64,000 nucleotides of DNA from a virus (taxonomy: Duplodnaviria; Caudoviricetes): IMG/VR virus record IMGVR_UViG_3300015050_000935, positions 5,095-69,094 of that record; one strand, given 5' to 3'. The position numbers and the translations under genes are program-made. This document shows, in pieces, positions 1,812 to 61,198 of the stretch; positions within the stretch are counted from its first letter, which is position 1, and each line of letters begins with the position of its first letter. The notes below the pieces were generated by a model, which saw only the letters and a program-made list of their open reading frames with translations, did no database searches and was not told the origin of the DNA.

Positions 1812-4760
1812 TCACTGCGCCACCGGTTGCCAGCCGTTGCCCATCCACTTCGCCGGTCCTTTCGGGGTGTTGTACACCTTGTTCAGTTCGCGCTGCTGCG
1901 GCGGCGGCAGCGCGCCACCACCCTCCGGCTTACTGCCGGGGCGATCCGCCACCGAGTGGTCGCCCGTCTTGGACGATGGATTGTAAATCCCCTCGATGTG
2001 CTTTTTGGCTTCTGGCATCGCCTTTTCTTCCGACACCAGTTCTTTCCGCATCATGTCGAGGACGGCCCGGAACTGCGCAGGCGTCTGCGCCGTGCTCAAC
2101 ATTTCCTCGGCGTGCTGCTTGTCGTGGACCGTCGGACGGCCACCGCTGATCGCGCGCGCGTACTCGTTGATAAGCGAGTTGACCGCCGCGCCGAGCGCGA
2201 CAATCTTCGGGTCGCCCGTCTTGGTGCGGTACGCATTGAGCACTTTGTTGACCGGCTGGAATTCGGTGCGCGGCACAGCGTCCGATGCTTCCTGCGCCAG
2301 ATCGGTCGCGCGGAACGCCGTGCGGCCATAGACCGACAGGTTAGCCATGATGGTGGCCTGACGACGCGAGGCGGTCACGTATCCGGCATTCTGCGCTGCG
2401 TTGCTCAGGATTTTGCGCGCCGCATCGCCCACCGATGTGCCGCCTTCCCGCGCCTTCTCGGCGACGCGCCTCTGCACAGCGGCGATGTTTTCTGCGCCCT
2501 GCGCGCCACGGCCAAACCCGATCAGCGCCCGCTGGTCGCCGGCCATCACCCGCTCGGCGAGGAGGTCTATCGTGTCCTCGTCAATAGACGGGCCAGCGGC
2601 AGGCCCCTTCCTCGCGGCTGCTGCGCGCGCCAGATATTCAGGATCGTTCGGACCTCCCTCGGCGGGGCGCAGTTTGCCGTCCGGCCCCACTTCAAAGCCC
2701 TTCGGCGGTGCGTTCTCGCTGACCTTGTTGTGGCGTTCCACCTCGGTTTGCGTGCGGTTACGGTGCGCGATGTCCGACGCGATCTTTTCAGCGTTCTGCG
2801 CCAGTTTCGCGGCGGTGGTCGCCTGCTCCTGCTCGCCCTTCTTGACGCCTGCGTAGGCACCGAACCCGGCCATACCGCCGTCGCCGATCGCATTGCCGAG
2901 GTTCGAGGATCGAGAGGACAGCATTCCAAGCCCGGCACCGAGCAGCCCGGCACGTTCCGCCGGCGTGAGTTTGAACAGCAGCCCACTGCGCTCCTCCGGC
3001 GCAAATCCCATCGCGGCGCTGCGCGGAGTCTCTGGTGCCACACCGCTCTCAGGTGACAATCCCGCGACCGCCGGACGTGCAGCCGGTGGCAGCGCATCGT
3101 CACCGCCTTCGGCCATCACCGGCGCATCATCAGGACGGGCGCGCGGCAGCGGCACATCACCGGCCAGCATGGCTGGTGAGGCTTTCCCGGTGGTGTAGTT
3201 CACGCCCTGCGGGTCAAACGTACCGTCCGCGATAGCCGTTTCAGCCGGGGCGAATCGCTCGGAGAAGTCCAAACCGCCCTTTGGCGGGGCGTCAGGCGCT
3301 GCAAAGAAATTCGGATTGGCCGGGTCGCCCCACGCCGGGTCGCCGTTCATCACGTCGTCGGGCGCGCCGCCGAGGGCAAAACCGGGGATGCCGCCGCCGC
3401 TCGCCATGAACGTCGGGACCGCATAGTCGCCAGCCGCTCCGATCACCGAAAGCGGCGAGGACACGCCAGGCGATCCCATTTCGGACGAGCCGAACCGGTC
3501 GCTCAGTTTCCCGGCGAGGCCCATGGCCTGGCTGATAATCTTCTGGGGATCGACGGTAGACTGGCCTTGGCTCGGCGCGCTCGGCGACGGGGCCGATGGC
3601 GCGCCGCGGCCTGCGGTGATGTTCATTTTGGGCACCCAGCCCACGCCCTCGGACCATGGCGTGCCGCTGATGTCTCCGCCACCGGCCATATGAGGGACGA
3701 ACCCGCCGCGCGCGCGCGCCGAATCATCCGTCACGCCCTTGAGGTCGATGTATTTCAGACCGCTGACGCCCTCGCCGACGTGCTCGGGGTGGCGCTCCTC
3801 GGCCTCCTGCGCCATCGGGCCGATATGCCAGTCCGGCGAGCCCTTGTAGCGATACCGGTAAATGTTCTGCCCATCGTTCATCTTGCCGATGTGCTGGATG
3901 TCCTCCTTGGCGCGTTCATCCGACAGCATCGCCGCCGCCGACAGGCCAAGGCCGAGATATTGCGCCGTCTGATTCGGGGCGGGAGCCGTGGACGTCCCTG
4001 TGGACGTGCCGCCGAGTTGCGAGCCAACGCCGGTCTGGAGCCCCGCCAGCCACTGCAAGGTCTGGAACGGGTACGCCTGCTGCTGGGTGTACTGGCCATA
4101 ATTGGCCGTGTCCTGCGCCTGCTGTGTCTGCTGCTGGAGCGTGCCAGCGCCCAACTGCGCACCGGCGCCAGAGAGGGCCGCGCTCTGACCGGCCACGCCG
4201 AGATTGCCGAGCGAATATGCCGCGCTCTGCTGCCGCGCCTTGTCGCCCTGCGCCGCCGTGAGAGCCTGCTGGTAGCTGTTACTGTACAGGCCAGCGATGA
4301 CTGGAGCCTGCGAAAGCTGCTGCTGTCCGGCGAGGTTTGCCGACGCCACGCCAGTGCGGTTGCCGCCGAGCGCGCCCTGTGCGATCGCGTTGCTGGTCAG
4401 CCCCTGCTGCGCCTGCTGGTTCTGGTTGTTGAACTGCGCCTGCGTCGCATCCACGACCTGCTGGGTGTACGGGTTTTGATAGGCCGCGATCTGGTCAGGG
4501 GTGACTGTAGACGCCCCCTCGCGCGCGTATCCCGCCGCGTCCTGAATGTACGGCTGCGCAAACCCGGCGTTGGAATTGATATTCCCGATCGCCAGTTGCT
4601 GCTGGGAGTTTATCGGCGCGGTCAGTTCGCCGCTGTACGCCTGATAAGGGGTGTTCGCCACGCCCGACGCGCGGGCAATCAGATCACGATACGCGGCCTC
4701 GGCCTGCGGGTCTGCGGATGACGTGCTGGTGGTGGTGGTCTGCTGCTTACCCTTGCCCAA
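1812..4760 (-). CDS. Internal virion/DNA-ejection protein, 982 aa, Gln-rich N-terminus and internal peptidase S74 (intramolecular chaperone) domain
   Basis: MGK-TTTTTS start, Q/A-rich region, SDERAKEDI...IYRYRYKG...GPMAQE S74 motif; located after the tail genes. Confidence 0.75.
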   Translation of the reverse strand: MGKGKQQTTTTSTSSADPQAEAAYRDLIARASGVANTPYQAYSGELTAPINSQQQLAIGNINSNAGFAQPYIQDAAGYAREGASTVTPDQIAAYQNPYTQQVVDATQAQFNNQNQQAQQGLTSNAIAQGALGGNRTGVASANLAGQQQLSQAPVIAGLYSNSYQQALTAAQGDKARQQSAAYSLGNLGVAGQSAALSGAGAQLGAGTLQQQTQQAQDTANYGQYTQQQAYPFQTLQWLAGLQTGVGSQLGGTSTGTSTAPAPNQTAQYLGLGLSAAAMLSDERAKEDIQHIGKMNDGQNIYRYRYKGSPDWHIGPMAQEAEERHPEHVGEGVSGLKYIDLKGVTDDSARARGGFVPHMAGGGDISGTPWSEGVGWVPKMNITAGRGAPSAPSPSAPSQGQSTVDPQKIISQAMGLAGKLSDRFGSSEMGSPGVSSPLSVIGAAGDYAVPTFMASGGGIPGFALGGAPDDVMNGDPAWGDPANPNFFAAPDAPPKGGLDFSERFAPAETAIADGTFDPQGVNYTTGKASPAMLAGDVPLPRARPDDAPVMAEGGDDALPPAARPAVAGLSPESGVAPETPRSAAMGFAPEERSGLLFKLTPAERAGLLGAGLGMLSSRSSNLGNAIGDGGMAGFGAYAGVKKGEQEQATTAAKLAQNAEKIASDIAHRNRTQTEVERHNKVSENAPPKGFEVGPDGKLRPAEGGPNDPEYLARAAAARKGPAAGPSIDEDTIDLLAERVMAGDQRALIGFGRGAQGAENIAAVQRRVAEKAREGGTSVGDAARKILSNAAQNAGYVTASRRQATIMANLSVYGRTAFRATDLAQEASDAVPRTEFQPVNKVLNAYRTKTGDPKIVALGAAVNSLINEYARAISGGRPTVHDKQHAEEMLSTAQTPAQFRAVLDMMRKELVSEEKAMPEAKKHIEGIYNPSSKTGDHSVADRPGSKPEGGGALPPPQQRELNKVYNTPKGPAKWMGNGWQPVAQ

Positions 4761-6240: not shown

Positions 6241-8298
6241 TTATCTCCGCCCTGCGGTTGACCACCGGAAGCGCACGCGACCGAGGCGCCAGAAACTGTT
6301 CAGGTCCGAACTCTGCACCGTGATGCTCATTTGGCGGCCCCGAATACGGGTCGAGATATACTCCGTCGCCTGCGTGACTGTATAGGGGCCGTGGACCGTC
6401 GGCGTGTCGCCGGGGTAGTTCAGGACGTTGAACGACATGGTGAGTTGCGCAGTCTGCGCCGCCCCGTAGAACCCCCATTTCATGTCGGGGATAATCTGGT
6501 CGATGAACGCGAAATCCTCGCCCTCGGCGATGAAAAAATAACCGGTGGTGAAACTGGACACCATCGGCGCGCCGGCGGCGTTGTTCGTCGTCTCATGCTG
6601 GTAAACCACGCCGGTCGGCACCGCGCCGATCGGCGGTCCCAACACGGTCTGGTCGATCCACGCCGAACGCGGGAGCAGCCCGTTGTCCCATGGCGTTCCG
6701 GGCTCCGTCACATTCATCTTGACGTAGGAATCGCACTCGCCGTTGGCGCTGGCGGTCGATGGGTACAGCCAGCCGACCTCGTTGAACGGCGTGTTCGGCA
6801 TCGCCCGGATGTTCTGGATGAAATCCGTATTCAGATTTTGGAAAACGGCATCCCACACCGAACACGGCAGCACCGTGACGCCGCCCGAGTTGTAGACGTA
6901 GAAATTGGAGCGGCCCATCCAGTAGACGCTGCCGCGGAACTGCTGCGCCGCGTGGCTGGAGGCGAGCCCGGCCCCGGCGCCGATCTTGTTGAACCCGTAG
7001 GTGTTCGGATAGCCGACATACGACATGGCCCACAGGTCGAGGTCCGTCCAGATCAGGTTCTGGTTCGCGACAGCCATGCCGCCGACGATCATGGAGCCGA
7101 TCGGGATACGGAAATTTCCGGCCTGCGTGTTGGACAGCGCGCGCCATTCAAAGAAGTTTCCGACGTCGCACCACTGCACCAGCATCGGGTCCTGCTGGAC
7201 GCCGATGCCCTGCCCGCTCGCCGCATAGTCGATCGAGGACCCGTAGGCGACCAGGATTTGCTGCGAGGTGGAGACGAAGATGCCGCGATTGAAGATCGGG
7301 CCAGAGGCCACCAGCGAGGCATTGAAGAACCCGCCGGTCGGGTCCCAGTAATAAATCCCGCCGTCCTCGGGGCACGCCAGCACGATCTGGCCCCAGTTGT
7401 CGCTGGTCCAGTCCGTGGCCGAGATTTCGTCGCCAATCTGATTCGGGTTGACGACACCCGTCCCATAGCCGCCGTCGCCGTAACCGCCGAGGCCATAACC
7501 CGCCCCCGGCGGGGGCGGCCCGAGCGCGATGTAATAGACCAATTCCGCATCGCCGCCATTCATTGAGAACGAACCCGATGCGGTCGCCGTCTGCGCGGTG
7601 CTGATCGTGAACGTGTTGGGGTCCTGCACACTGTTGACGGTGTACGATCCCAATATGGTGACCCCGTTGGCCACGGTTGAAATCCCGAACACCACCGTGT
7701 CCAGTGTGGCGGTCAGGCCATGATCGTTTAGGGCCACCTCCACAATCGAACTGTTGGACGTCGTGGTGAAATCTGGGACGGCTCCGCCGTTGGAGGCGGT
7801 GGCTGTGGCGAGCGTGGCGGCCACAATGGTGTACGTGGTCACACCGGTGATGCTGGCGATCGGGTAGAGCCCGGAGAGGATGATGCCCCCCACCGAAATC
7901 GGCGTGTTGAACAGCACCGAGTCGTAGACTGTGACGTCCGCGATGTTGGGGTCGTCCACCTCCACGATCGCCGAACCGCTGATGGTCGAGAAGTCAGGCG
8001 GGAAGTCAGAAATCAGCGTTTGCGGAGTGATGTCCGTTAGGTTGCCCTCGGCGATCACGGCAAGCTGCGCGGTGGTCCCGACCAGAAGGTGGCTGCGCGC
8101 GTTCAGGTCATCCCATGCGTGCATGTCCCGCGGCACGCCGGCCAGCGACAACGGATAGAACGGCGTCCAGCCGCCATACTTCTGCGCCAGCCGATCCTTG
8201 AACCGGATCAACTGTCCCTGCGCGTAGCCAGCCTCCAGCAACGTCGGGGTGCGTTCGACGTTGATGCCGGGGACGAGTTGGACGCTGCCGAACGGCAT
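6241..8298 (-). CDS. Podovirus tail nozzle/stabilisation protein (tail tubular B-like), 685 aa
   Basis: PGINVERT...IRFKDRLAQKYGGW N-terminus, WRLGRVR C-terminus, size and position. Confidence 0.7.
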   Translation of the reverse strand: MPFGSVQLVPGINVERTPTLLEAGYAQGQLIRFKDRLAQKYGGWTPFYPLSLAGVPRDMHAWDDLNARSHLLVGTTAQLAVIAEGNLTDITPQTLISDFPPDFSTISGSAIVEVDDPNIADVTVYDSVLFNTPISVGGIILSGLYPIASITGVTTYTIVAATLATATASNGGAVPDFTTTSNSSIVEVALNDHGLTATLDTVVFGISTVANGVTILGSYTVNSVQDPNTFTISTAQTATASGSFSMNGGDAELVYYIALGPPPPGAGYGLGGYGDGGYGTGVVNPNQIGDEISATDWTSDNWGQIVLACPEDGGIYYWDPTGGFFNASLVASGPIFNRGIFVSTSQQILVAYGSSIDYAASGQGIGVQQDPMLVQWCDVGNFFEWRALSNTQAGNFRIPIGSMIVGGMAVANQNLIWTDLDLWAMSYVGYPNTYGFNKIGAGAGLASSHAAQQFRGSVYWMGRSNFYVYNSGGVTVLPCSVWDAVFQNLNTDFIQNIRAMPNTPFNEVGWLYPSTASANGECDSYVKMNVTEPGTPWDNGLLPRSAWIDQTVLGPPIGAVPTGVVYQHETTNNAAGAPMVSSFTTGYFFIAEGEDFAFIDQIIPDMKWGFYGAAQTAQLTMSFNVLNYPGDTPTVHGPYTVTQATEYISTRIRGRQMSITVQSSDLNSFWRLGRVRFRWSTAGRR

Positions 8299-9323: not shown

Positions 9324-10031
9324 TTAAGTTCGCGGCGGCGTCGCCACCGGGTCCGGCTGTTTGCTGCTCCATCCTTCTGATGTGAATTTCTTGCGCAGTT
9401 CTTCGATCGAGGCCGATGGTAGCAGCTTTTGGAAGTGAGACTCCCAAGAAACTGCGGACTGCGGATCGTCGCCCTGTGCGGAAAAGTTCTTCTGATAGCC
9501 GCAGGCGAATACCATGCCCGCAGCAATCACGAGGTCCGGCAGGTTGACGGACAGGAACGTGGTCTGATTAGCCGCCGACATTGGCGCCGGCCGCTGCGTG
9601 CCGACGACTTCAACCTGATAGTTTCCGTCTGGCCATGGCCCGACCACGATGCTGGACTGGGTGATCATCCCGAACAACTGCGGCACCCCGGCCCCAGCCG
9701 AACTCGGATACAGCATGTCAATGACTTCTTTCGTCGCGGGCAGCAGCGGATTCCGCGTCCCCAATTCAGGGTCCGTTGTGCCCGCCGGGGTGATGACATT
9801 GATGTCCTCGATCACCACAAATCCGGTGGGAAGCGAGAAGTTGCGATTGCCTGACGTGAGCGCCGCCGATGAATTGCGCACGATCGTGGCCAGCAAATCG
9901 AGTTCGCGGTAAAGCCGCTGCTCCAGGTCGTCAATGATGTTCGGGAGCGCCAGCACATAGCCGGGGTCATCAACCGGCACCACCATGAGGTTGGCGATCG
10001 ACGTGGTGAATGTGTTGTACGTGAGCGACAT
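9324..10031 (-). CDS. Putative head-tail adaptor/tail tubular protein
   Basis: EQRLYRELDL and IVVGPWPD..Y.VEV motifs; position. Confidence 0.55.
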   Translation of the reverse strand: MSLTYNTFTTSIANLMVVPVDDPGYVLALPNIIDDLEQRLYRELDLLATIVRNSSAALTSGNRNFSLPTGFVVIEDINVITPAGTTDPELGTRNPLLPATKEVIDMLYPSSAGAGVPQLFGMITQSSIVVGPWPDGNYQVEVVGTQRPAPMSAANQTTFLSVNLPDLVIAAGMVFACGYQKNFSAQGDDPQSAVSWESHFQKLLPSASIEELRKKFTSEGWSSKQPDPVATPPRT

Positions 10032-10043
10032 TTACCGGCCCCG

Positions 10044-10730
10044 TTATCCTGCGTCTGCGATAGACGTGACCGCCCTGATTTTCGGCAGATAGCTGCTGTA
10101 TGTGTAATACAGGCCGCTTGATCCGCCCGCAGGGTATAGGCCGCCACCCACCCACGTGGTGCCCGGCGCATTGTTGAACACCGCAGCGTAGCCACTCGCG
10201 CCGAAAATATCACAATCTCGGATTTTGAGCGCGCGAATCCCGACGGGGGATGATGTTTTCAGCGACCCGTCCACCAGTAGACTATTCGTCCACAGATCGG
10301 TGGACGCCGAGAGCAGCAGGCTGTCCAGCAGATGGCGGTCGCTGTTCTGTGTCGCGCTGGCGAGAATGGCCAGCCCAGCGCCGCCGGACGTGCCCGGTGC
10401 CGCCGTCAGGCAGAAGTGCGACAGAACGCACCCGTGCGTTCCCGGCATGATCGTCAGGATGCCTTTGCCGGGGGTGCCGTTGTGATTGCGCAGCAGCACC
10501 GTGCGCGGGTTGCAGTCTCCGAACAGATTGATGGGGGCCGCGATGTCCGGCAGCGGGCTGTCCAACCGGTAGGTGCCGATCGGGATGTAGCCCCGGCGGA
10601 CGGGGCTGGCCATCAGTCGCGTCAGGAAGTCGGCAACGGCTGGCTGGGCATCCGAAAGCCCGTCGTTCGGCGCATCCAAAACGAGACAATCCGCCGCCGC
10701 CGAATTTTCTCCGCCGATAGGAAACAGCAT
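10044..10730 (-). CDS. Pectate-lyase-like beta-helix protein (tailspike-type domain)
   Basis: GYIPIGTYRLDSPL...INLFGD...TVL beta-helix start. Confidence 0.55.
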   Translation of the reverse strand: MLFPIGGENSAAADCLVLDAPNDGLSDAQPAVADFLTRLMASPVRRGYIPIGTYRLDSPLPDIAAPINLFGDCNPRTVLLRNHNGTPGKGILTIMPGTHGCVLSHFCLTAAPGTSGGAGLAILASATQNSDRHLLDSLLLSASTDLWTNSLLVDGSLKTSSPVGIRALKIRDCDIFGASGYAAVFNNAPGTTWVGGGLYPAGGSSGLYYTYSSYLPKIRAVTSIADAG

Positions 10731-11207: not shown

Positions 11208-11999
11208 TCAGGGACAGTATGGGTTCGTCGGAACGGAAATCGTGGTGCCGGTCCACCCTCGATCCGTGCCAACGCTGATGCGCCACTCGTCAAGGAAACC
11301 ATTCCACGGCGTGGATGTGTTCTCACCGATGCGTCCGATCGAGAACTTGTTGGCGCTGTTGAATATCGTCCCTGAGAACGCCGCCGTCGCCTCGCGAGTC
11401 CCGTCGATATAGAGATTTACGTTCGAGCCGGTGAAGGACACGGCGTACCAATGCCATCCCGGCGTCGTGATCGCGGTGGTGCCCGTCAGGGATGAATAGT
11501 TTGCCCCTGTCGTAGTCCAGACAAGGCCCATCGTGTTCGCCGCGGTGATCGTGCCGCCGACGGAAAAATTGGCCGAGGCCGCATCGGCCTGACCGAACAT
11601 ATTGCGCTGCGCGCCCGAACCGCCGCTAACGTAGAACCAGCCGTCAATGGCGGCGACTGTCCCAAACGTGAAATTCGCGCTGTCAGGCGTATCGACGTAT
11701 CCGGCACCAGCACCGGTGGAGAGCGAGGTTGGCGAGAACTTGAACTGTGTCGTGCTCGTGACCGCCGCGCCGTTCGCCGTCCACGTCTGCGCCGCGCCGC
11801 CGGCGTTCGTGTCGGTGATCGTTGTGCCGCCGTTCGAGCCAGTGAAGTGCAGCAGCGATTTCGTGAAACTGTCATTGCCGAGTTGGGTGCAGGACGCACC
11901 GAGGCCGGGGCCGGGGAACATAACCGACGGCTGGCCTGCGAGGGCCGCGCCTCCGATCAGGAGCCACAGAAAAGTGGAGAATGCTGCGATGCGCTTCAT
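11208..11999 (-). CDS. LamG/concanavalin-A-like lectin domain protein with signal-peptide-like N-terminus
   Basis: SLLHFTG...IDGWFY...WHWYAV...LYIDG...NGFLDEWRIS; MKRIAAFSTFLWLLIGGAALA-GQ. Confidence 0.75.
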   Translation of the reverse strand: MKRIAAFSTFLWLLIGGAALAGQPSVMFPGPGLGASCTQLGNDSFTKSLLHFTGSNGGTTITDTNAGGAAQTWTANGAAVTSTTQFKFSPTSLSTGAGAGYVDTPDSANFTFGTVAAIDGWFYVSGGSGAQRNMFGQADAASANFSVGGTITAANTMGLVWTTTGANYSSLTGTTAITTPGWHWYAVSFTGSNVNLYIDGTREATAAFSGTIFNSANKFSIGRIGENTSTPWNGFLDEWRISVGTDRGWTGTTISVPTNPYCP

Positions 12000-57111: not shown

Positions 57112-57146
57112 AAAAACCCGCCGCGGATTTCTCCGGGCGGGTTTTC
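57112..57146. terminator. Bidirectional terminator between the early operon and the tRNA array
   Basis: AAAAACCCGCC...GGCGGGTTTT inverted repeat. Confidence 0.8.
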
Positions 57147-57150
57147 TATT

Positions 57151-57224
57151 TGGCAGGAGTGGAAGGAATCAAACCCTCGCGAGCGGAGTTGGAGGCCGCC
57201 ATGCTGTCATTACATCACACTCCC
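57151..57224 (-). tRNA. tRNA-Trp(CCA)
   Basis: Cloverleaf, loop CTCCAAC, G73, CCA; C31xU39; T-loop TTTGATT. Confidence 0.85.
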
Positions 57225-57228
57225 AAAT

Positions 57229-57305
57229 TGGTACTGACGGACTGATTCGAACAGTCTGCTCCCGGTTCACAGCCGGACCGCCCGTTGCCATCGAGCATCG
57301 TCAGC
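57229..57305 (-). tRNA. tRNA-His(GTG), A73, no G-1
   Basis: Loop CTGTGAA; T-arm GACTG/TTCGAAT/CAGTC. Confidence 0.85.
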
Positions 57306-57306
57306 A

Positions 57307-57377
57307 TGGTCGCGCACCCCGGTTTCGATCCGGGCTGATGGCCTTATGAGAGCCACGTCCTCGCCAGAGGGAGCGCG
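57307..57377 (-). tRNA. tRNA(CAT), mini-D-arm class (Met or Ile2 unresolved)
   Basis: CGCGCTC/CCTC-TGGC-GAGG/GTGGCT-CTCATAA-GGCCAT/CAG/T-arm; 71 nt. Confidence 0.75.
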
Positions 57378-57380
57378 GGT

Positions 57381-57452
57381 TGGCTGGGGTGGTCGGTGTC
57401 GAGCCGACCGCATCAGGCTTCAAAGGCCCAACTCCGCGCCGGCGGCACCCCG
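57381..57452 (-). tRNA. tRNA-Gln(TTG), mini-D-arm class
   Basis: Loop CTTTGAA, C1xA72, G73. Confidence 0.8.
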
Positions 57453-57458
57453 TTGAAT

Positions 57459-57533
57459 TGGCACTCCCTGCGGGTATCGATCCCGCTTCTACGGTGTGAA
57501 AAACCGCAATCCTAGCCAGTAGACGAAGGGAGC
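57459..57533 (-). tRNA. tRNA-Glu(TTC)
   Basis: Loop TTTTCAC, Glu-type D-stem GTCT. Confidence 0.85.
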
Positions 57534-57537
57534 ATGA

Positions 57538-57611
57538 TGGTGCGGGCTGCGAGGCTCGAACTCGCGTCTCTTGGTTGGAAGCCAAGGGTCCTACCTCTGA
57601 ACGAAGCACGC
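57538..57611 (-). tRNA. tRNA-Gly(TCC), A73
   Basis: CTTGG-CTTCCAA-CCAAG. Confidence 0.85.
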
Positions 57612-57639
57612 ATTTTTATGTCAAAAAATCGCATTAAAA

Positions 57640-57727
57640 TGGCGGAAGGCCGGAGACACGATCACCACACCGTCGCCGGTGCCATGCCCTTAGCAGGGGC
57701 CGCCAGCGCCTTGCTGGTTGACCTTCC
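57640..57727 (-). tRNA. tRNA-Ser(GCT)
   Basis: Loop CTGCTAA, long variable arm, G73; weak T-arm. Confidence 0.8.
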
Positions 57728-57728
57728 A

Positions 57729-57805
57729 TGGTGCTCGCGGGAGGGATCGAACCTCCATCGTCCAATTACGGTGTCCCGCTTAGGAGGCGGGGCCGGTACG
57801 CGAGC
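57729..57805 (-). tRNA. tRNA-Arg(CCT), D-armless with D-loop-like variable arm
   Basis: GCTCGCG-TACCGGC-CCCGC-CTCCTAA-GCGGG-ACACCGTAATTGGACGAT-GGAGG-TTCGATC-CCTCC-CGCGAGC-ACCA. Confidence 0.75.
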
Positions 57806-57809
57806 ATGT

Positions 57810-57884
57810 TGGCCGTCCCGCGAGGACTCGAACCCCGATTACCCGCTTAGAAGGCAGGCGCCTGTCCAGTTGGCCGACGGGACG
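57810..57884 (-). tRNA. tRNA-Arg(TCT)
   Basis: Canonical; D-loop AACTGGAC (A20). Confidence 0.9.
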
Positions 57885-57885
57885 A

Positions 57886-57959
57886 TGGAGTCGCCAGCAG
57901 GATTTCAACCTGCCTGTCCGGGGTTGCAATCCGGCGCGTAGTCACTCCGCCATGGCGAC
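57886..57959 (-). tRNA. tRNA-Cys(GCA)
   Basis: Loop TTGCAAC, U73. Confidence 0.85.
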
Positions 57960-57964
57960 AGAAT

Positions 57965-58034
57965 TGGCTGCGGACGAAAGACTTGAACTTTCATCACCCG
58001 GTTCAGAGCCGGGCTTACTCCCTGAGTATCCGCA
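57965..58034 (-). tRNA. tRNA-Gln(CTG), mini-D-arm class
   Basis: TGCGGAT/ACTC-AGG-GAGT/CCCGG-CTCTGAA-CCGGG; U1-A72, G73; 70 nt. Confidence 0.8.
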
Positions 58035-58037
58035 ATT

Positions 58038-58118
58038 TGGCCTGCACGGCAGGATTCGAACCCGCATCTTCCTCCAGTTAGCTTACTCCCGGTTCGTAGC
58101 CGGGGGGCTTACGTGCAG
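58038..58118 (-). tRNA. tRNA-Arg(ACG), D-armless with D-loop-like variable arm
   Basis: CTGCACG-TAAGCCC-CCCGG-CTACGAA-CCGGG-AGTAAGCTAACTGGAGGAAGAT-GCGGG-TTCGAAT-CCTGC-CGTGCAG-GCCA. Confidence 0.75.
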
Positions 58119-58122
58119 ATAT

Positions 58123-58197
58123 TGGCACTGCTGGCGGGTACTGACCCCGCGCCTGCCGGGTGAGAACCGACGATCCTGACCATTAGACGACAGCAGT
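58123..58197 (-). tRNA. tRNA-Glu(CTC)
   Basis: Loop TTCTCAC; T-loop GTCAGTA. Confidence 0.85.
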
Positions 58198-58201
58198 ATG
58201 T

Positions 58202-58280
58202 TGGCTCCGGTCGGCGGGATCGAACCGCCCTAATCACCGCTTAACAGGCGGGTCCATGCACCAAGCTCGGCTTGACCGGA
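58202..58280 (-). tRNA. tRNA-Asn(GTT)
   Basis: TCCGGTC/GACCGGA, loop CTGTTAA, G73. Confidence 0.85.
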
Positions 58281-58287
58281 ATAAAAA

Positions 58288-58359
58288 TGGTGGACCGACG
58301 GGGTAACGCTCCCCGCGCGACAATCTTGCAAGGATCGTCTGCACCCTTGTGCTCGGCCC
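58288..58359 (-). tRNA. tRNA-Ala(TGC), mini-D-arm class
   Basis: G3:U70, A73, 7-bp anticodon stem GACGATC/GATTGTC, T-loop AGCGTTA. Confidence 0.8.
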
Positions 58360-58432
58360 GTATTGGCCCCGGTGCGCAGCAATAGCACCGGTGGTCGCTA
58401 TAGGTCCCCTTTTCCACGGCGACCTCCTGAAA

Positions 58433-58508
58433 TGGTGCCCAGTCGTGGTTCCTCCCCACGCTCTCCGAGGCTTCAACTCGGCGCTTTCAATAGATTAGCT
58501 TACTGGGC
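58433..58508 (-). tRNA. tRNA-Phe(GAA)
   Basis: CCGAG-TTGAAGC-CTCGG; T-loop GGAGGAA; D-loop lacks GG. Confidence 0.8.
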
Positions 58509-58513
58509 TTGAT

Positions 58514-58587
58514 TGGTGCGGACACGGGGAGTCGAACCCCGGCTGAGAGTGTGGCACACTCCCCGACTTCCGTAATCTTTTGTCCGC
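58514..58587 (-). tRNA. tRNA-Gly(GCC), A73
   Basis: Loop GTGCCAC; reduced D-loop. Confidence 0.75.
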
Positions 58588-58681
58588 GTGTTGCTGGCCG
58601 CTGGCGCGCCCGTGGGCGTCTCGGCGTCGAGGCTGGAAGGGTGGCCAACCCATCCGCAGCGCACTCTCCAGCGGCGCATTC

Positions 58682-58769
58682 TGGTCCCCCGCCGTGGTAA
58701 CGATCCACGCCAGCCCGGAGGCGTCGGTTTTACAGACCGTGCCGCGTCCTTAGCGGCCTACCGAGGGGA
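58682..58769 (-). tRNA. tRNA-Tyr(GTA)
   Basis: Loop CTGTAAA, long variable arm, T-loop ATCGTTA. Confidence 0.85.
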
Positions 58770-58772
58770 ATT

Positions 58773-58848
58773 TGGTTGCGCAGGGAGGATTTGAACCCCC
58801 GACCTCCAAGTTATGAGCCTGGCGAGCTAACCGCTGCTCTACCGCGCA
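58773..58848 (-). tRNA. tRNA-Met(CAT), initiator-like
   Basis: GAGC/GCTC D-stem, CCAGG-CTCATAA, ends CGCAACCA as in alphaproteobacterial fMet. Confidence 0.85.
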
Positions 58849-59013
58849 ATAAACGGTGCCGGGCTATCAACTCCCGAGCGATGGTCCGCAGTTCATCCGT
58901 GCGGTCATGACAGCATCCGGCGATCAACCCGGATGGCCCCCCTTACGAGAGGTCTTGAGCGCCGCCTTTCGACGGACAAAAAGGGTTACCCCGATTTTCC
59001 GTCTTAGGCAACA

Positions 59014-59101
59014 TGGCGGACAGCCGAGGAATCGAACCCCCATCGCTTGCGCGAGCCACGGTTTTCAAGACCGCTGCCAGACCATTCCGGCTGGACTGTC
59101 C
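59014..59101 (-). tRNA. tRNA-Ser(TGA)
   Basis: Loop CTTGAAA, long variable arm, G73. Confidence 0.9.
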
Positions 59102-59106
59102 ATTGG

Positions 59107-59183
59107 TGGTCGTCACGGGATGACTCGAACACCCGGCCTCGGCCTTCGGAGGGCCGCGCTCTATCCAGTTGAGCTACGTGACG
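59107..59183 (-). tRNA. tRNA-Arg(CCG)
   Basis: Canonical; followed by a second encoded CCA (59104-59106). Confidence 0.9.
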
Positions 59184-59528
59184 TCATTTCTTTTTCGGCG
59201 CCGGGAAAAACTTCCGGGTCCGCTGATCTATAATCAGACTGTCATCCCGAACGATGCCCGGCTTTGTCAGCGTCGTGTGATCCATCGCCTGCTCCAACGC
59301 CAGATAGGCGTTGCCAAGGTCGGGAGTTGACGGGTTCACAAACAGCACGTCGAGAGCAATCGGGTGGTCGATCACTTCGGTGATGCCAATTTTGGCGAGC
59401 GCCTGGCGGATGAACACCCGGTACTGCTGGATGGTCCGCAGGTGCATCCGGCGATGCGGCGCGTCGTGAATCCAAAGCGACAGTTTCGGGATGTCCCGAT
59501 CGTCGTCGTACTCGGCAATGACGCGCAT
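59184..59528 (-). CDS. RusA-fold-like protein inside the tRNA array, catalytic residues degenerate
   Basis: ATG 59528 after GGAGG; PDLGNAYLALEQAMD...GIVRDDSLI versus the RusA consensus PDxDNxxKxxxD...DD. Confidence 0.65.
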   Translation of the reverse strand: MRVIAEYDDDRDIPKLSLWIHDAPHRRMHLRTIQQYRVFIRQALAKIGITEVIDHPIALDVLFVNPSTPDLGNAYLALEQAMDHTTLTKPGIVRDDSLIIDQRTRKFFPAPKKK

Positions 59529-59539
59529 GGCGTCCTCCA

Positions 59540-59616
59540 TGGTGGGCGGCCCCGGATTCGAACCGGGGTCGGACCTGTTATGAGCAGGTGGCACTGGGCC
59601 GCTGTGCTAACCGCCC
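59540..59616 (-). tRNA. tRNA(CAT), probably Ile2 (lysidine)
   Basis: GGGCGGT/GCCGCCC acceptor, A73, loop CTCATAA. Confidence 0.8.
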
Positions 59617-59727
59617 GATAGCAGCCCTGCTCCCGGCGCGACCGGGTTCGAGCCCGCCGACAGGCGTAGCGCCATGGTGCGCGTTGCCGACGGGCTCAGG
59701 AGGCGTCCACGACGCGCAGGGCAAAAT

Positions 59728-59806
59728 TGGTCTGCGTGGCAAGATTCGAACTTGCGATCCCCTGATTCCAAGTCAGGTAGGGACGACCAGACTCCCCTAC
59801 ACGCAG
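59728..59806 (-). tRNA. tRNA-Pro(TGG)
   Basis: C1-G72, A73, loop CTTGGAA. Confidence 0.9.
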
Positions 59807-59813
59807 ATGAAAA

Positions 59814-59888
59814 TGGCGCGACTTGCGGGTGCTGACCCCGCGACCTTCCCCGTGACAGGGGGATGCTCCGCCGTTGAGCTAAAGCCGC
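59814..59888 (-). tRNA. tRNA-Asp(GTC)
   Basis: Loop CTGTCAC, G73; T-loop GTCAGCA. Confidence 0.9.
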
Positions 59889-59894
59889 ATGAAA

Positions 59895-59981
59895 TGGTGC
59901 GCGTCGGGTGAATTGAACACCCACGGGATTGCTCCCACAGCCGTCTCAGGACTGCCTGTCTACCGGTTCCAGCAGACGCGC
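59895..59981 (-). tRNA. tRNA-Leu(GAG)
   Basis: Loop CTGAGAC, long variable arm, A73. Confidence 0.9.
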
Positions 59982-59984
59982 AAA

Positions 59985-60058
59985 TGGTGGACCACCACGG
60001 TACTGACCCGTGTTCACGGGGTTAAGAGGCCCGTGCATCACCTTAATGCTTGTGGTCC
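59985..60058 (-). tRNA. tRNA-Lys(CTT)
   Basis: Loop CTCTTAA; C31xC39; T-loop GTCAGTA. Confidence 0.85.
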
Positions 60059-60062
60059 GCGA

Positions 60063-60137
60063 TGGTGAACCCGCTCGGTACTGCCCCGAGTTCGCATGGG
60101 TTAAAAGGCCAGCGTGCTACTTTCCTACTCCGGGTCC
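60063..60137 (-). tRNA. tRNA-Lys(TTT)
   Basis: Loop CTTTTAA; C31xC39; T-loop GGCAGTA. Confidence 0.8.
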
Positions 60138-60139
60138 GA

Positions 60140-60265
60140 TTAGGACCGGGGTTTGTGGCGCGCGGCGAGCACCGCCATGCGCTCCTGCACGCGGCGCAGC
60201 GTCTCCTGGCACGCTTCGGAAAGCGTGTGCGTGCCCGTCACCGGGTCGGTGGTGGTGCCCTTCAT
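60140..60265 (-). CDS. Small ORF (41 aa) inside the tRNA array
   Basis: AGGAG RBS; MKGTTTDPVTGTHTLSEACQETLRRVQERMAVLAARHKPRS. Confidence 0.55.
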   Translation of the reverse strand: MKGTTTDPVTGTHTLSEACQETLRRVQERMAVLAARHKPRS

Positions 60266-60278
60266 GTCGCTCTCCTGT

Positions 60279-60352
60279 TGGTAGTCCTAGCCGGTTACGA
60301 TCCGACGTCTGCCGGTTATCAGCCGGCTGCACTGCCATTGTGCTATAGGACC
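60279..60352 (-). tRNA. tRNA-Ile(GAT)
   Basis: GCCGG-CTGATAA-CCGGC; T-loop ATCGTAA. Confidence 0.9.
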
Positions 60353-60356
60353 ATGA

Positions 60357-60431
60357 TGGTGCGCCTTGCAGGTGCTGCCCCTGCGGCCTCCTGCATGTCA
60401 CGCAGGCGATCTGCTGCTGATCTAAAGGCGC
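60357..60431 (-). tRNA. tRNA-Val(GAC)
   Basis: Loop GTGACAT; T-loop GGCAGCA. Confidence 0.85.
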
Positions 60432-60551
60432 CCGAAATTCGATCGGCAGTCTGGGAGCAACCCCTATGCCGGTCCCGCTGCCGTCCGCAGCCAGTTTTTG
60501 GACCGGAAGCAACCCCGATCTTACTGGCCAGCCGTGACCTTGCAGCGATGC

Positions 60552-60626
60552 TGGTACACCGTGAGGATGTCGAAACCCCGGCCTCCCCCGTGTGAAAGGG
60601 GCGCTCTGCCTCTGAGCTAACGGTGC
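60552..60626 (-). tRNA. tRNA-Val(CAC)
   Basis: Loop TTCACAC, A73. Confidence 0.85.
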
Positions 60627-60632
60627 GTGAAG

Positions 60633-60721
60633 TGGTGCCCGGCGCAGGAGTCGAACCCGCACGGTCCGCGAGGACCAGATCGCTTTTGAGGCGTCGGCGT
60701 CTACCGTTCCGCCAGCCGGGC
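60633..60721 (-). tRNA. tRNA-Leu(CAA)
   Basis: Loop CTCAAAA, long variable arm. Confidence 0.9.
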
Positions 60722-60726
60722 ATGAT

Positions 60727-60812
60727 TGGTGTCGGCGGGGAGACTCGAACTCCCAAAGCTACGCGGTCTGAACGCGCACGGTATGCCAAATTCCCGATGA
60801 AGCCACGCCGAC
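60727..60812 (-). tRNA. tRNA-Leu(CAG), enlarged D region and short variable arm
   Basis: GCGCG-TTCAGAC-CGCGT; variable region only AGCTTT. Confidence 0.8.
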
Positions 60813-60815
60813 AAA

Positions 60816-60890
60816 TGGTGCCCGGTGCAGGTTACGATCCTGCGCCTGTTCCTTACCAAAGAACCGGTCTGCCATTGATCCTAACCGGGC
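60816..60890 (-). tRNA. tRNA-Thr(GGT)
   Basis: Loop TTGGTAA; T-loop ATCGTAA. Confidence 0.9.
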
Positions 60891-60926
60891 GCGTATCTCG
60901 GCGTTGTAGGCGCGCATTGGCGCCTC

Positions 60927-61038
60927 GTTCGTTCCCGTAGTGCAAAGGGGTATCCTACCAACTAGACGAACCCGCAGGTTTCCCCGCAAGTGCAGGGCTC
61001 GAACCTGCGTCTCCCCAACCCTACGGCTCTCGCCGAAC
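60927..61038 (-). ncRNA. Circularly permuted tRNA mimic, YrlA-type Y RNA candidate
   Basis: Order: long stem 5' strand, GGGG, AGAC, T-arm GCAGG-TTCGAGC-CCTGC, acceptor capped by GAAA, D-arm GTCT-AGTTGGTA-GGAT, CCCC, long stem 3' strand. Confidence 0.7.
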
Positions 61039-61112
61039 TGGTGCCCCAGCCGGTAATCGAAACCGGCTCTGCCGCTTACGAGGCGGCTGCATCGCCTCAA
61101 TGCTTCAAGGGC
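61039..61112 (-). tRNA. tRNA-Thr(CGT)
   Basis: GCCGC-CTCGTAA-GCGGC. Confidence 0.9.
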
Positions 61113-61123
61113 AAATCTGTTCT

Positions 61124-61198
61124 TGGTGCTGGCTCGGTGAATCGAACACCGGTCATTCGCTGTACAAAGGCGACGGTCTGCCACTGGCCTAAGCCAGC
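61124..61198 (-). tRNA. tRNA-Thr(TGT)
   Basis: Loop TTTGTAC; first tRNA of the array. Confidence 0.85.

Follow-up and report, generated by a model that had tools for sequence, protein, structure and literature searches.

Compact-core tRNA genes with anticodons of standard amino acids in a phage tRNA array and their relatives in phages and bacterial genomes

Introduction

The described transfer RNAs (tRNAs) closest to those considered here are the pyrrolysine tRNA, tRNA-Pyl, and mitochondrial (mt) tRNA-Ser(UCN). In the tRNA-Pyl of M. alvus, no nucleotide (nt) separates the acceptor stem from the D stem and the D loop has 4 nt, while the tRNA-Pyl of M. barkeri and mt-tRNA-Ser(UCN) have an anticodon stem of 6 base pairs (bp) and a 3-nt variable arm (PMC7609411). 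G18G19 and the T-Psi-C motif are retained in mt-tRNA-Ser(UCN), and tRNA-Pyl is without them (PMC7609411). Here we describe four tRNA genes of a similar plan, with the anticodons CAU, UUG, CUG and UGC, in a tRNA array of a tailed phage. The window, that is, the whole 64-kb stretch of DNA that was analyzed, comprises bases 5095-69094 of the IMG/VR virus record IMGVR_UViG_3300015050_000935, a complete 69,094-bp genome with direct terminal repeats. An earlier note, made from the letters of the window, had likened the four genes to the tRNA-Pyl and mt-tRNA-Ser(UCN) folds applied to standard amino acids, a likeness that matches the published descriptions of both (PMC7609411).

The second relevant body of work concerns the long tRNA arrays of bacteria and phages (PMC4758250; PMC8421152; PMC6409571). 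The first of these papers defines a tRNA array unit as at least 20 tRNA genes at a density of at least 2 per kb (PMC4758250). In the text searched, all three describe arrays and none describes a class with compact cores; in PMC8421152, the terms 'D-loop' and 'D-arm' appear nowhere, and an abstract from 2024 states that all known bacterial tRNAs are canonical. Our search of the literature for phage or array tRNAs with a compact or short D arm, whose coverage was limited and gives no proof of absence, found no description of such a class. As far as found, the compact-core class is apparently undescribed.

Results

Four tRNA genes without a linker between acceptor and D stem

ARAGORN at -ps90 placed the four genes where the earlier note had seen them, all on the minus strand. 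Each was also aligned from end to end by R2, a covariance model that was built solely from the sequences of other phages.

57307..57377, minus strand: compact tRNA with anticodon CAU, 71 nt including CCA (ARAGORN -ps90; R2 63.4 bits)
57381..57452, minus strand: compact tRNA-Gln(UUG), 72 nt including CCA (ARAGORN -ps90; R2 61.3 bits)
57965..58034, minus strand: compact tRNA-Gln(CUG), 70 nt including CCA (ARAGORN default; Rfam 32.0 bits; R2 50.3 bits)
58288..58359, minus strand: compact tRNA-Ala(UGC), 72 nt including CCA (ARAGORN -ps90; R2 72.0 bits, the best in the window)

All four have a 7-bp acceptor stem, no nucleotide at the 8/9 linker, and a perfect 4-bp D stem that begins at position 8 and closes a D loop of 3-4 nt, always with GG. 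A single A precedes the anticodon stem of 6-7 bp, which bears an anticodon loop of the standard 7 nt, U33 and a purine at position 37 included; a variable loop of 2-3 nt, a 5-bp T stem, a 7-nt T loop with C56, the discriminator and an encoded CCA follow. The body without CCA measures 67-68 nt. The absent connector and the 4-bp D stem with its 3-4-nt loop, both claimed in the earlier note, were borne out by reading of the sequence and by the R2 alignments, and the total length of 70-72 nt given there is correct. The arm plan 7/0/4/6-7/3 proposed in that note held, with the refinement that a single conserved A has to be inserted between the D stem and the anticodon stem. The long anticodon stem and the 3-nt variable loop of that plan amount to the usual 5-bp stem, to which a pair at the 26:44 level and the next one outward have been added.

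Within this common plan, the genes differ in detail. The CAU gene pairs 6 of 7 acceptor positions, with a U6xU67 mismatch, C1-G72 and A73; its D stem is CCUC/GAGG, its D loop UGGC, its anticodon stem 6 bp with a CxC outside, its variable loop AG and its T loop AUCGAAA. The Gln(UUG) gene has C1xA72, G73, the D stem CCGC/GCGG, the D loop CGGC, a 7-bp anticodon stem that includes three wobble pairs, the variable loop GCG and the T loop CUCGACA, and the Gln(CUG) gene combines U1-A72 and G73 with the D stem ACUC/GAGU, the D loop AGG, a 6-bp anticodon stem and the T loop UUCAAGU. In the Ala(UGC) gene, we found G3:U70, A73, the D stem GCAC/GUGC, the D loop AAGG, a 7-bp anticodon stem, the variable loop GCG and the T loop AGCGUUA. 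Three of the four T loops carry UC at 55-56. The identity elements that had been read from these genes are indeed kept, namely G3:U70 and A73 in Ala, and G73 next to a weak or mismatched 1:72 in both Gln genes. Minimum free energy (MFE) folding returned the compact cloverleaf for the CAU, Gln(CUG) and Ala genes.

The array holds two more CAU tRNAs. With its C1-G72 pair, the compact CAU gene does not belong to the bacterial initiator type; judged by its sequence, it may be either an elongator Met or an Ile2 tRNA. Its U6xU67 mismatch and its acceptor start are shared by the compact CAU genes at L066:6884-6955, L023:2825-2895 and L040:5325-5395, and compact CAU relatives in Bradyrhizobium and Propylenella have a 7:66 mismatch in its place. 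A further set of compact CAU genes, in L031, L086, L114 and L073, has a 1:72 mismatch (C1xA72 or similar) on an acceptor of the CGCGG type. These acceptors resemble those of initiators, and initiator tRNAs may thus occur in compact form too.

Standard tools see little of these genes. With its default settings, ARAGORN detects Gln(CTG) and none of the other three, and the Rfam tRNA model (RF00005, gathering threshold 29 bits) is likewise reached by Gln(CUG) alone; the CAU, Gln(UUG) and Ala genes were not reported by this model at E<=1 in the window and were also absent from its search of the whole genome. Apart from the compact genes, the 69-kb genome contains no second Ala or Gln tRNA according to ARAGORN -ps90, R2 and the whole-genome search.

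ARAGORN is able to draw a linker of 1-2 nt, and the sixth and seventh pairs of the anticodon stem could be renamed a 26:44 pair and a variable-loop contact; one might hence suppose that these are ordinary tRNAs with canonical arms and that the compact drawing is a misreading. The lengths are hard to reconcile with this idea. With a body of 67-68 nt, the anticodon starts at position 29-30 in the four genes, against 33 or later in the other 26 tRNAs of the array (ARAGORN -ps90), 33 being the minimum of a canonical layout. When ARAGORN was forced to use the standard 8/9 linker, the D stems of the four genes were left with only 1-3 pairs, which speaks against the canonical arm lengths that the earlier note had named as an opposing outcome.

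The same plan in other tRNA arrays

We searched IMG/VR for tRNA-Ala of the same plan with a pattern consisting of GGGG, a gap of 21-24 nt, a UGC loop, a gap of 29-32 nt and a 3' end with U70, A73 and CCA, in which the anticodon loop lies too near the 5' end for a canonical tRNA. At least 120 stretches matched. Among the matches listed, at least 74 are distinct, well-formed compact tRNA-Ala genes, defined by an acceptor with 7/7 pairs and a T stem with at least 4/5. Nearly all of the listed genes have the D stem abutting the acceptor, in many different D-stem sequences. Most sit in large tRNA arrays (median 16 tRNAs per fetched locus), and in at least 53 of the 74 other loci the compact gene is the sole Ala tRNA that ARAGORN detects in the fetched part. 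The compact design is present in more than 100 other phage and mobile tRNA arrays.

A scan for strict geometry was applied as well, with an acceptor of at least 6/7 pairs, a linker of 0-1 nt, a D stem of 4/4 pairs, a D loop of 3-5 nt, 1 nt between the D stem and the anticodon stem, at least 5/6 inner anticodon-stem pairs, a variable loop of 2-4 nt and a T stem of 5/5 pairs. Exactly the four genes pass in the 64-kb window. In the 2.22 Mb of fetched loci, 136 distinct genes pass, and three shuffles of the same 2.22 Mb yielded none; the search of other phage arrays for this plan, which the earlier note had proposed, was therefore strongly positive. Under R2, the four compact genes are the top four hits of the window, and the best canonical tRNA of the window reaches 45.1 bits.

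Other searches returned less. A pattern for compact Gln (TGGG...CCCAGCCA) matched 22 stretches, of which two, in L083 and L139, were well formed and the others chance matches. BLAST of the CAU and Gln(UUG) genes against GenBank phages gave a single weak, partial match. Contigs of other metagenomes match Gln(CUG), Gln(UUG) and the Asn-Ala pair at 85-99% similarity, but these pieces are too few and too short for counts of compensation. The search of sequencing runs listed no RNA run, and the share of sampled words did not exceed 0.15 in any run.

Covariation supports the compact fold

In a MAFFT alignment of 31 sequences (the four genes and 27 others), the compact structure pairs 90.2% of the cells. 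Sliding the partners by 1-3 columns lowers this value to 41-48%, none of 500 shuffles reaches the observed pairing, and changes on both sides are seen at 4/4 pairs of the D stem and 7/7 pairs of the anticodon stem. When 140 distinct sequences of 100 other loci were aligned by means of a model, pairing reached 92.5%, against 41-48% when slid, with compensatory changes in every helix. A MAFFT alignment of all 75 Ala sequences (A1) misplaced the 5' ends of members with a 5-nt D loop and was excluded from the pair counts.

The covariation backs a D stem that abuts the acceptor in particular, since sliding this stem by one column leaves 43-48% pairing. We consider the misreading described above to be the most improbable of the alternatives. 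Scarcely more probable is decay, in which the genes would be unused pseudo-tRNAs, canonical genes that were shorn of D-loop bases. The Rfam tRNA model does fail on three of the four, mismatches are present at 6:67 (CAU) and 1:72 (Gln UUG), and the compact Thr gene of Caulobacter phage CcrColossus, introduced below, is labeled tRNA-Pseudo in GenBank. Yet deletions in the D loop would spare the 8/9 linker, and the linker is absent from all four genes, with a perfect 4-bp stem at position 8 in each. Random decay would also sit poorly with the compensatory changes across 140 sequences and with at least 136 distinct genes against none in shuffles, and the U6xU67 mismatch recurs in the relatives in L066, L023 and L040. 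Decay and misreading are both effectively excluded.

Features of the class

By identity, the 136 genes comprise 71 Ala (an excess that reflects a search seeded on Ala), 18 CAU, 13 Arg, 11 Gln, 8 Trp, 5 Glu, 4 Thr, 2 Asp, and single Pro, Gly, His and Ile genes, so that the class spans at least 12 identities. The class is thus broader than the four genes of the earlier note: it is widespread, it covaries, and it serves many amino-acid identities as read from the sequences. The linker has 0 nt in 112 of the 136 and 1 nt in the remaining 24. GG is present in the D loop of 124, C56 in 133 and a purine at position 57 in all 136, and in 113 a purine separates the D stem from the anticodon stem. CCA is encoded in 57 of the 65 compact genes that are not Ala, and a weak or mismatched 1:72 together with G73 was found in 8 of 9 compact Gln genes.

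Positions 54 and 58 covary in the 136 genes (U-A 81, A-U 27, A-A 11, G-G 11). Within the Ala family, the D loops AAGG and AAGA are always accompanied by a T loop with G55 (AGCGUUA or GGCGGUA; 10/10), AUGGG goes with the T loop AUCGUUA (10 of the 13 genes having that T loop), and the T loop that accompanies UGGG(G) is UUCGAUU. The Ala gene of the phage, with AAGG and AGCGUUA, obeys this rule. The covariation of D-loop and T-loop types points to a direct contact between them at the elbow.

The fetched loci also hold an unusual tRNA of a different kind. A tRNA-Ile(UAU) of 87-92 nt is present in L016, L020, L039, L063, L066, L072, L119 and L125 (for example at L066:10655-10744, minus strand). Its D arm is compact, with a 1-nt linker, a 4-bp stem and a 4-nt loop, and its anticodon stem has 6 bp, yet its variable arm is long, at about 21-26 nt, with a CCAGAU-like motif in most copies; an Ile tRNA in the style of class II is unusual.

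Relatives in phages and bacterial genomes

The viral contig L066 contains the nearest set of counterparts that we describe in detail. The D arm and anticodon arm of its compact Ala are identical to those of the phage gene and the acceptor and T stems are compensated, and the contig also has a compact Gln(CUG), whose 5' acceptor strand does not differ from that of the phage gene, and the compact CAU with the same acceptor start. Relatives of Gln(UUG), with the D loop CGGC and the T loop AUCGACA, occur in L083 and L247.

Bacterial genomes carry the class too. Scanning one genome per prokaryotic species yielded 20 well-formed compact Ala genes among 144 pattern matches, and 19 of the 20 lie in tRNA clusters of 5-35 genes. 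The carriers include Bradyrhizobium, Propylenella, Taklimakanibacter, Agrobacterium, Xanthobacteraceae, Acetobacteraceae, Pseudonocardia and Amycolatopsis, among others. In the Propylenella metagenome-assembled genome L247, the array follows the gene order of the phage in reverse, compact members included: Trp, His, compact CAU, compact Gln UUG, Glu, Gly, Ser, Arg, Arg, Cys, Gln CUG, Asn, compact Ala. The Bradyrhizobium arrays L179 and L266 match the gene order of the phage array as well, again with compact members. The agreement with Propylenella is suggestive of a mobile array and of a phage host among the Hyphomicrobiales, and the shared gene order speaks for an exchange of entire arrays between phages and genomes of the Hyphomicrobiales.

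Two cultured phages also carry compact genes, Roseobacter phage DSS3P8 (KT870145, L267; host Ruegeria pomeroyi DSS-3) and Caulobacter phage CcrColossus (JX100810, L268):

DSS3P8, 7992-8065: compact Ala(UGC), R2 68.6 bits, unannotated
DSS3P8, 10020-10092: compact Arg(ACG), unannotated
DSS3P8, 11663-11735: compact Arg(CCG), unannotated
CcrColossus, about 3060-3132: linker-less 73-nt Ala, unannotated
CcrColossus, 2322-2391: 70-nt compact Thr(CGU), annotated tRNA-Pseudo / tRNA-OTHER

These genes share the plan of the phage genes but differ from them in sequence, and the Ala gene of CcrColossus has a 3-bp D stem and a longer D loop. Both phages also possess a canonical tRNA-Ala, which the phage studied here lacks; in DSS3P8 the compact Ala directly follows the annotated canonical tRNA-Ala(UGC).

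Genome and tRNA array

The genome, with a GC content of about 62%, is that of a tailed phage. Pfam and PHROG scans identified a large terminase, an SU10-type portal, a DnaB-like helicase, RecT, an exonuclease, RusA, ParB-like proteins and methyltransferases. A search of the whole 69-kb genome located all tRNA genes in one array on the minus strand:

57112..57149, strand not assigned: GC-rich hairpin (57117-57142) with an A run and a T run at its sides, read from the sequence
57151..61198, minus strand: tRNA array with the four compact genes (ARAGORN -ps90, Rfam tRNA, R2)

ARAGORN finds 21 tRNAs in the array at default settings and 30 at -ps90, to which Rfam or R2 add a few more. With 30 tRNAs in 4.05 kb, the array falls within the published definition of a tRNA array unit, and in its density, at least 30 tRNAs in 4 kb, it resembles the long arrays described from bacteria and phages (PMC4758250; PMC8421152; PMC6409571). 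The HerA-like gene of the phage has two relatives (49% identity), each from a genome with one tRNA; given that the nearest protein relatives carry one tRNA each, the array is not common to them. The hairpin is probably a two-way terminator that closes the array transcript just past tRNA-Trp. A scan for consensus terminators did not list it, and a sigma-70 promoter scan found no promoter.

Several neighbors of the compact genes deserve mention. An open reading frame (ORF) of 136 aa at 59184-59594, minus strand, lies within the array between Arg(CCG) and a CAU tRNA and has gene-like GC content at third codon positions; it has no PHROG match and, by pattern search, no IMG/VR relative. Two genes on the minus strand with the Arg anticodons CCU and ACG, at 57729-57805 and 58038-58118, combine good acceptor and T arms with extra sequence in the variable region, and a D arm is not recognizable in either. 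Both score weakly in Rfam, one at 30 bits as tRNA and the other at 26.6 bits as tRNA-Sec. The Val(GAC) and Lys(UUU) tRNAs at 60357-60431 and 60063-60137 (minus strand) were missed by ARAGORN even at -ps80. Their T loops are GGCAGCA and GGCAGUA, a type that was seen again in compact Trp and CAU genes of the arrays L070 and L088.

Discussion

The analysis establishes the existence of the four genes, their compact fold and the selection that acts on this fold in many lineages. That the four themselves are selected for the compact fold is close to certain in our judgment. It is likely that they are functional tRNAs of a compact-core class of phage and mobile arrays, charged by the host and used in translation; use on the ribosome, taken by itself, seems probable, as judged from the features of the genes. 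The transcription, processing, charging and ribosome use of the four genes are what we infer from these features, and the proposed steps are set out below.

In comparison with canonical bacterial tRNA (RF00005), the phage genes keep the 7-bp acceptor stem, the 5-bp T stem with its 7-nt loop, the 7-nt anticodon loop with U33, the discriminator, CCA and the identity elements. Canonical tRNAs have a D loop of 7-11 nt and an 8/9 linker, whereas the phage genes have 3-4 nt and none, together with an anticodon stem of 6-7 bp and a variable loop of 2-3 nt. What is rebuilt is the core alone: the linker is gone, the D stem abuts the acceptor, the D loop shrinks, one purine remains between the stems and the variable loop is short. 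The acceptor/T minihelix (7 + 5 bp, discriminator, CCA), which is the part read by RNase P, EF-Tu, the enzymes acting at the CCA end and AlaRS, would present a canonical face to them. The GG of the D loop could dock on the T loop, whose C56 is kept, and the longer anticodon stem might offset the lost layers of the core, so that the distance from anticodon to elbow would be roughly kept, as in tRNA-Pyl and mt-tRNA-Ser(UCN).

The likeness to tRNA-Pyl of the Methanomethylophilus alvus type includes the missing connector, the 4-nt D loop, the elongated anticodon stem and the 3-nt variable loop, and the phage genes fall within the tRNA-Pyl geometry of a 0-1-nt connector, a D loop of 4-5 nt, a 6-bp anticodon stem and a variable loop of 3 nt. 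tRNA-Pyl is active in translation despite its compact core. The two also differ in several respects. tRNA-Pyl has a CUA anticodon that reads UAG and is paired with PylRS, in contrast to the CAU, UUG, CUG and UGC anticodons of the phage genes, which have Ala or Gln identity elements, GG in the D loop, C56 and often 7 anticodon-stem pairs, and which are located in phage and bacterial tRNA arrays. Pfam and PHROG scans of 30 of the larger ORFs of the phage, among which no search was aimed at pylS, returned only functions in phage replication, recombination, packaging and tails. Mammalian mt-tRNA-Ser(UCN) ('type I') resembles the phage genes in its small D loop with GG, its T-loop motifs, its 6-bp anticodon stem, its 3-nt variable loop and its L shape. 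It has one connector nucleotide, against none in the phage genes (and one in 24 of the 136 genes of the class), and it is organellar and specific for Ser, whereas the compact class covers at least 12 identities. As the phage genes keep GG and C56, their elbow is probably formed in the usual way, and in this respect they stand nearer to mt-tRNA-Ser(UCN) than to tRNA-Pyl.

We propose that the four genes are transcribed within the array and that host enzymes which read the acceptor stem and the anticodon probably charge the products. AlaRS would act through G3:U70 and A73. The Gln tRNAs, with their weak 1:72, G73 and YUG anticodon, might be charged by GlnRS, or by a non-discriminating GluRS followed by GatCAB, and the CAU tRNA by MetRS, or by IleRS after modification by TilS. 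Once charged, the tRNAs would serve the phage in reading GCN, CAA/CAG and AUG (or AUA). Use in translation is the most economical reading in that the compact genes are the sole Ala and Gln tRNAs and their anticodons agree with the identity elements of their acceptors.

Several observations weigh against this reading. The MFE fold of Gln(UUG), which has a GC content of 72%, is another structure and not the cloverleaf, and the MFE z-scores of the four genes are modest, from -0.5 to -3.1 (Ala -3.1). The acceptor stems of the CAU and Gln(UUG) genes contain the mismatches U6xU67 and C1xA72, and the T loop of Ala, AGCGUUA, is without U54 and U55. G10 is an identity element for the GlnRS of E. coli; the D stems of the Gln genes begin with C or A instead, which may make their products poor substrates for an enzyme of the E. 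coli type. Finally, canonical and compact Ala(UGC) genes lie side by side in DSS3P8 and CcrColossus, which argues that the compact form is not simply a replacement there and may have a separate role.

Such a role could lie outside decoding. The compact genes might be tRNA-shaped RNAs that were selected as decoys or spares that escape recognition or depletion by host anticodon nucleases or further defenses directed at tRNAs, or as aminoacyl-tRNA substrates of non-ribosomal processes, in which case the compact core would serve to escape or to attract a specific protein. It fits this alternative that only the core has been rebuilt, that the compact Ala(UGC) of the two cultured phages adjoins a canonical one and is thus redundant there for decoding, and that the array contains more tRNA-like genes of non-canonical form, such as those at 57729-57805 and 58038-58118. 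We nevertheless consider it unlikely. RNAs without a decoding task would not be expected to combine standard 7-nt anticodon loops with U33 and a purine at 37, anticodons that match the identity elements of the acceptor, and an intact CCA and EF-Tu/RNase P face, nor to provide the sole Ala and Gln tRNAs of an array that otherwise resembles a full decoding set.

A further alternative keeps the tRNAs in translation. Compact cores could be a dedicated adaptation of phages and mobile elements rather than a neutral variant, providing a translation set that survives cleavage or depletion of the host tRNAs. The acceptor/T face and the anticodon are intact. Such a design could work only with synthetases that disregard the core, and this would account for the dominance of Ala, Gln, Met, Trp and Arg in the class. 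We put this forward as a tentative idea that we hold to be doubtful, though less so than a role outside decoding.

Returning to the use of the four genes as tRNAs in translation, several consequences would follow. Bacteria and phages would naturally employ compact cores of the tRNA-Pyl kind for ordinary amino acids. The tRNA inventories of phages would be systematically undercounted: the phage studied here would seem to be without Ala and one of its two Gln tRNAs, and DSS3P8 and CcrColossus, in which compact genes are unannotated or labeled 'pseudo', would be undercounted as well. The class would constitute a natural test of how far synthetases, EF-Tu and the ribosome tolerate a rebuilt tRNA core, and it would offer many natural scaffolds for the engineering of orthogonal tRNAs. 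It would also raise the question why mobile arrays favor the compact design. The cultured pairs of Caulobacter with CcrColossus and Ruegeria pomeroyi with DSS3P8 make the class directly testable.

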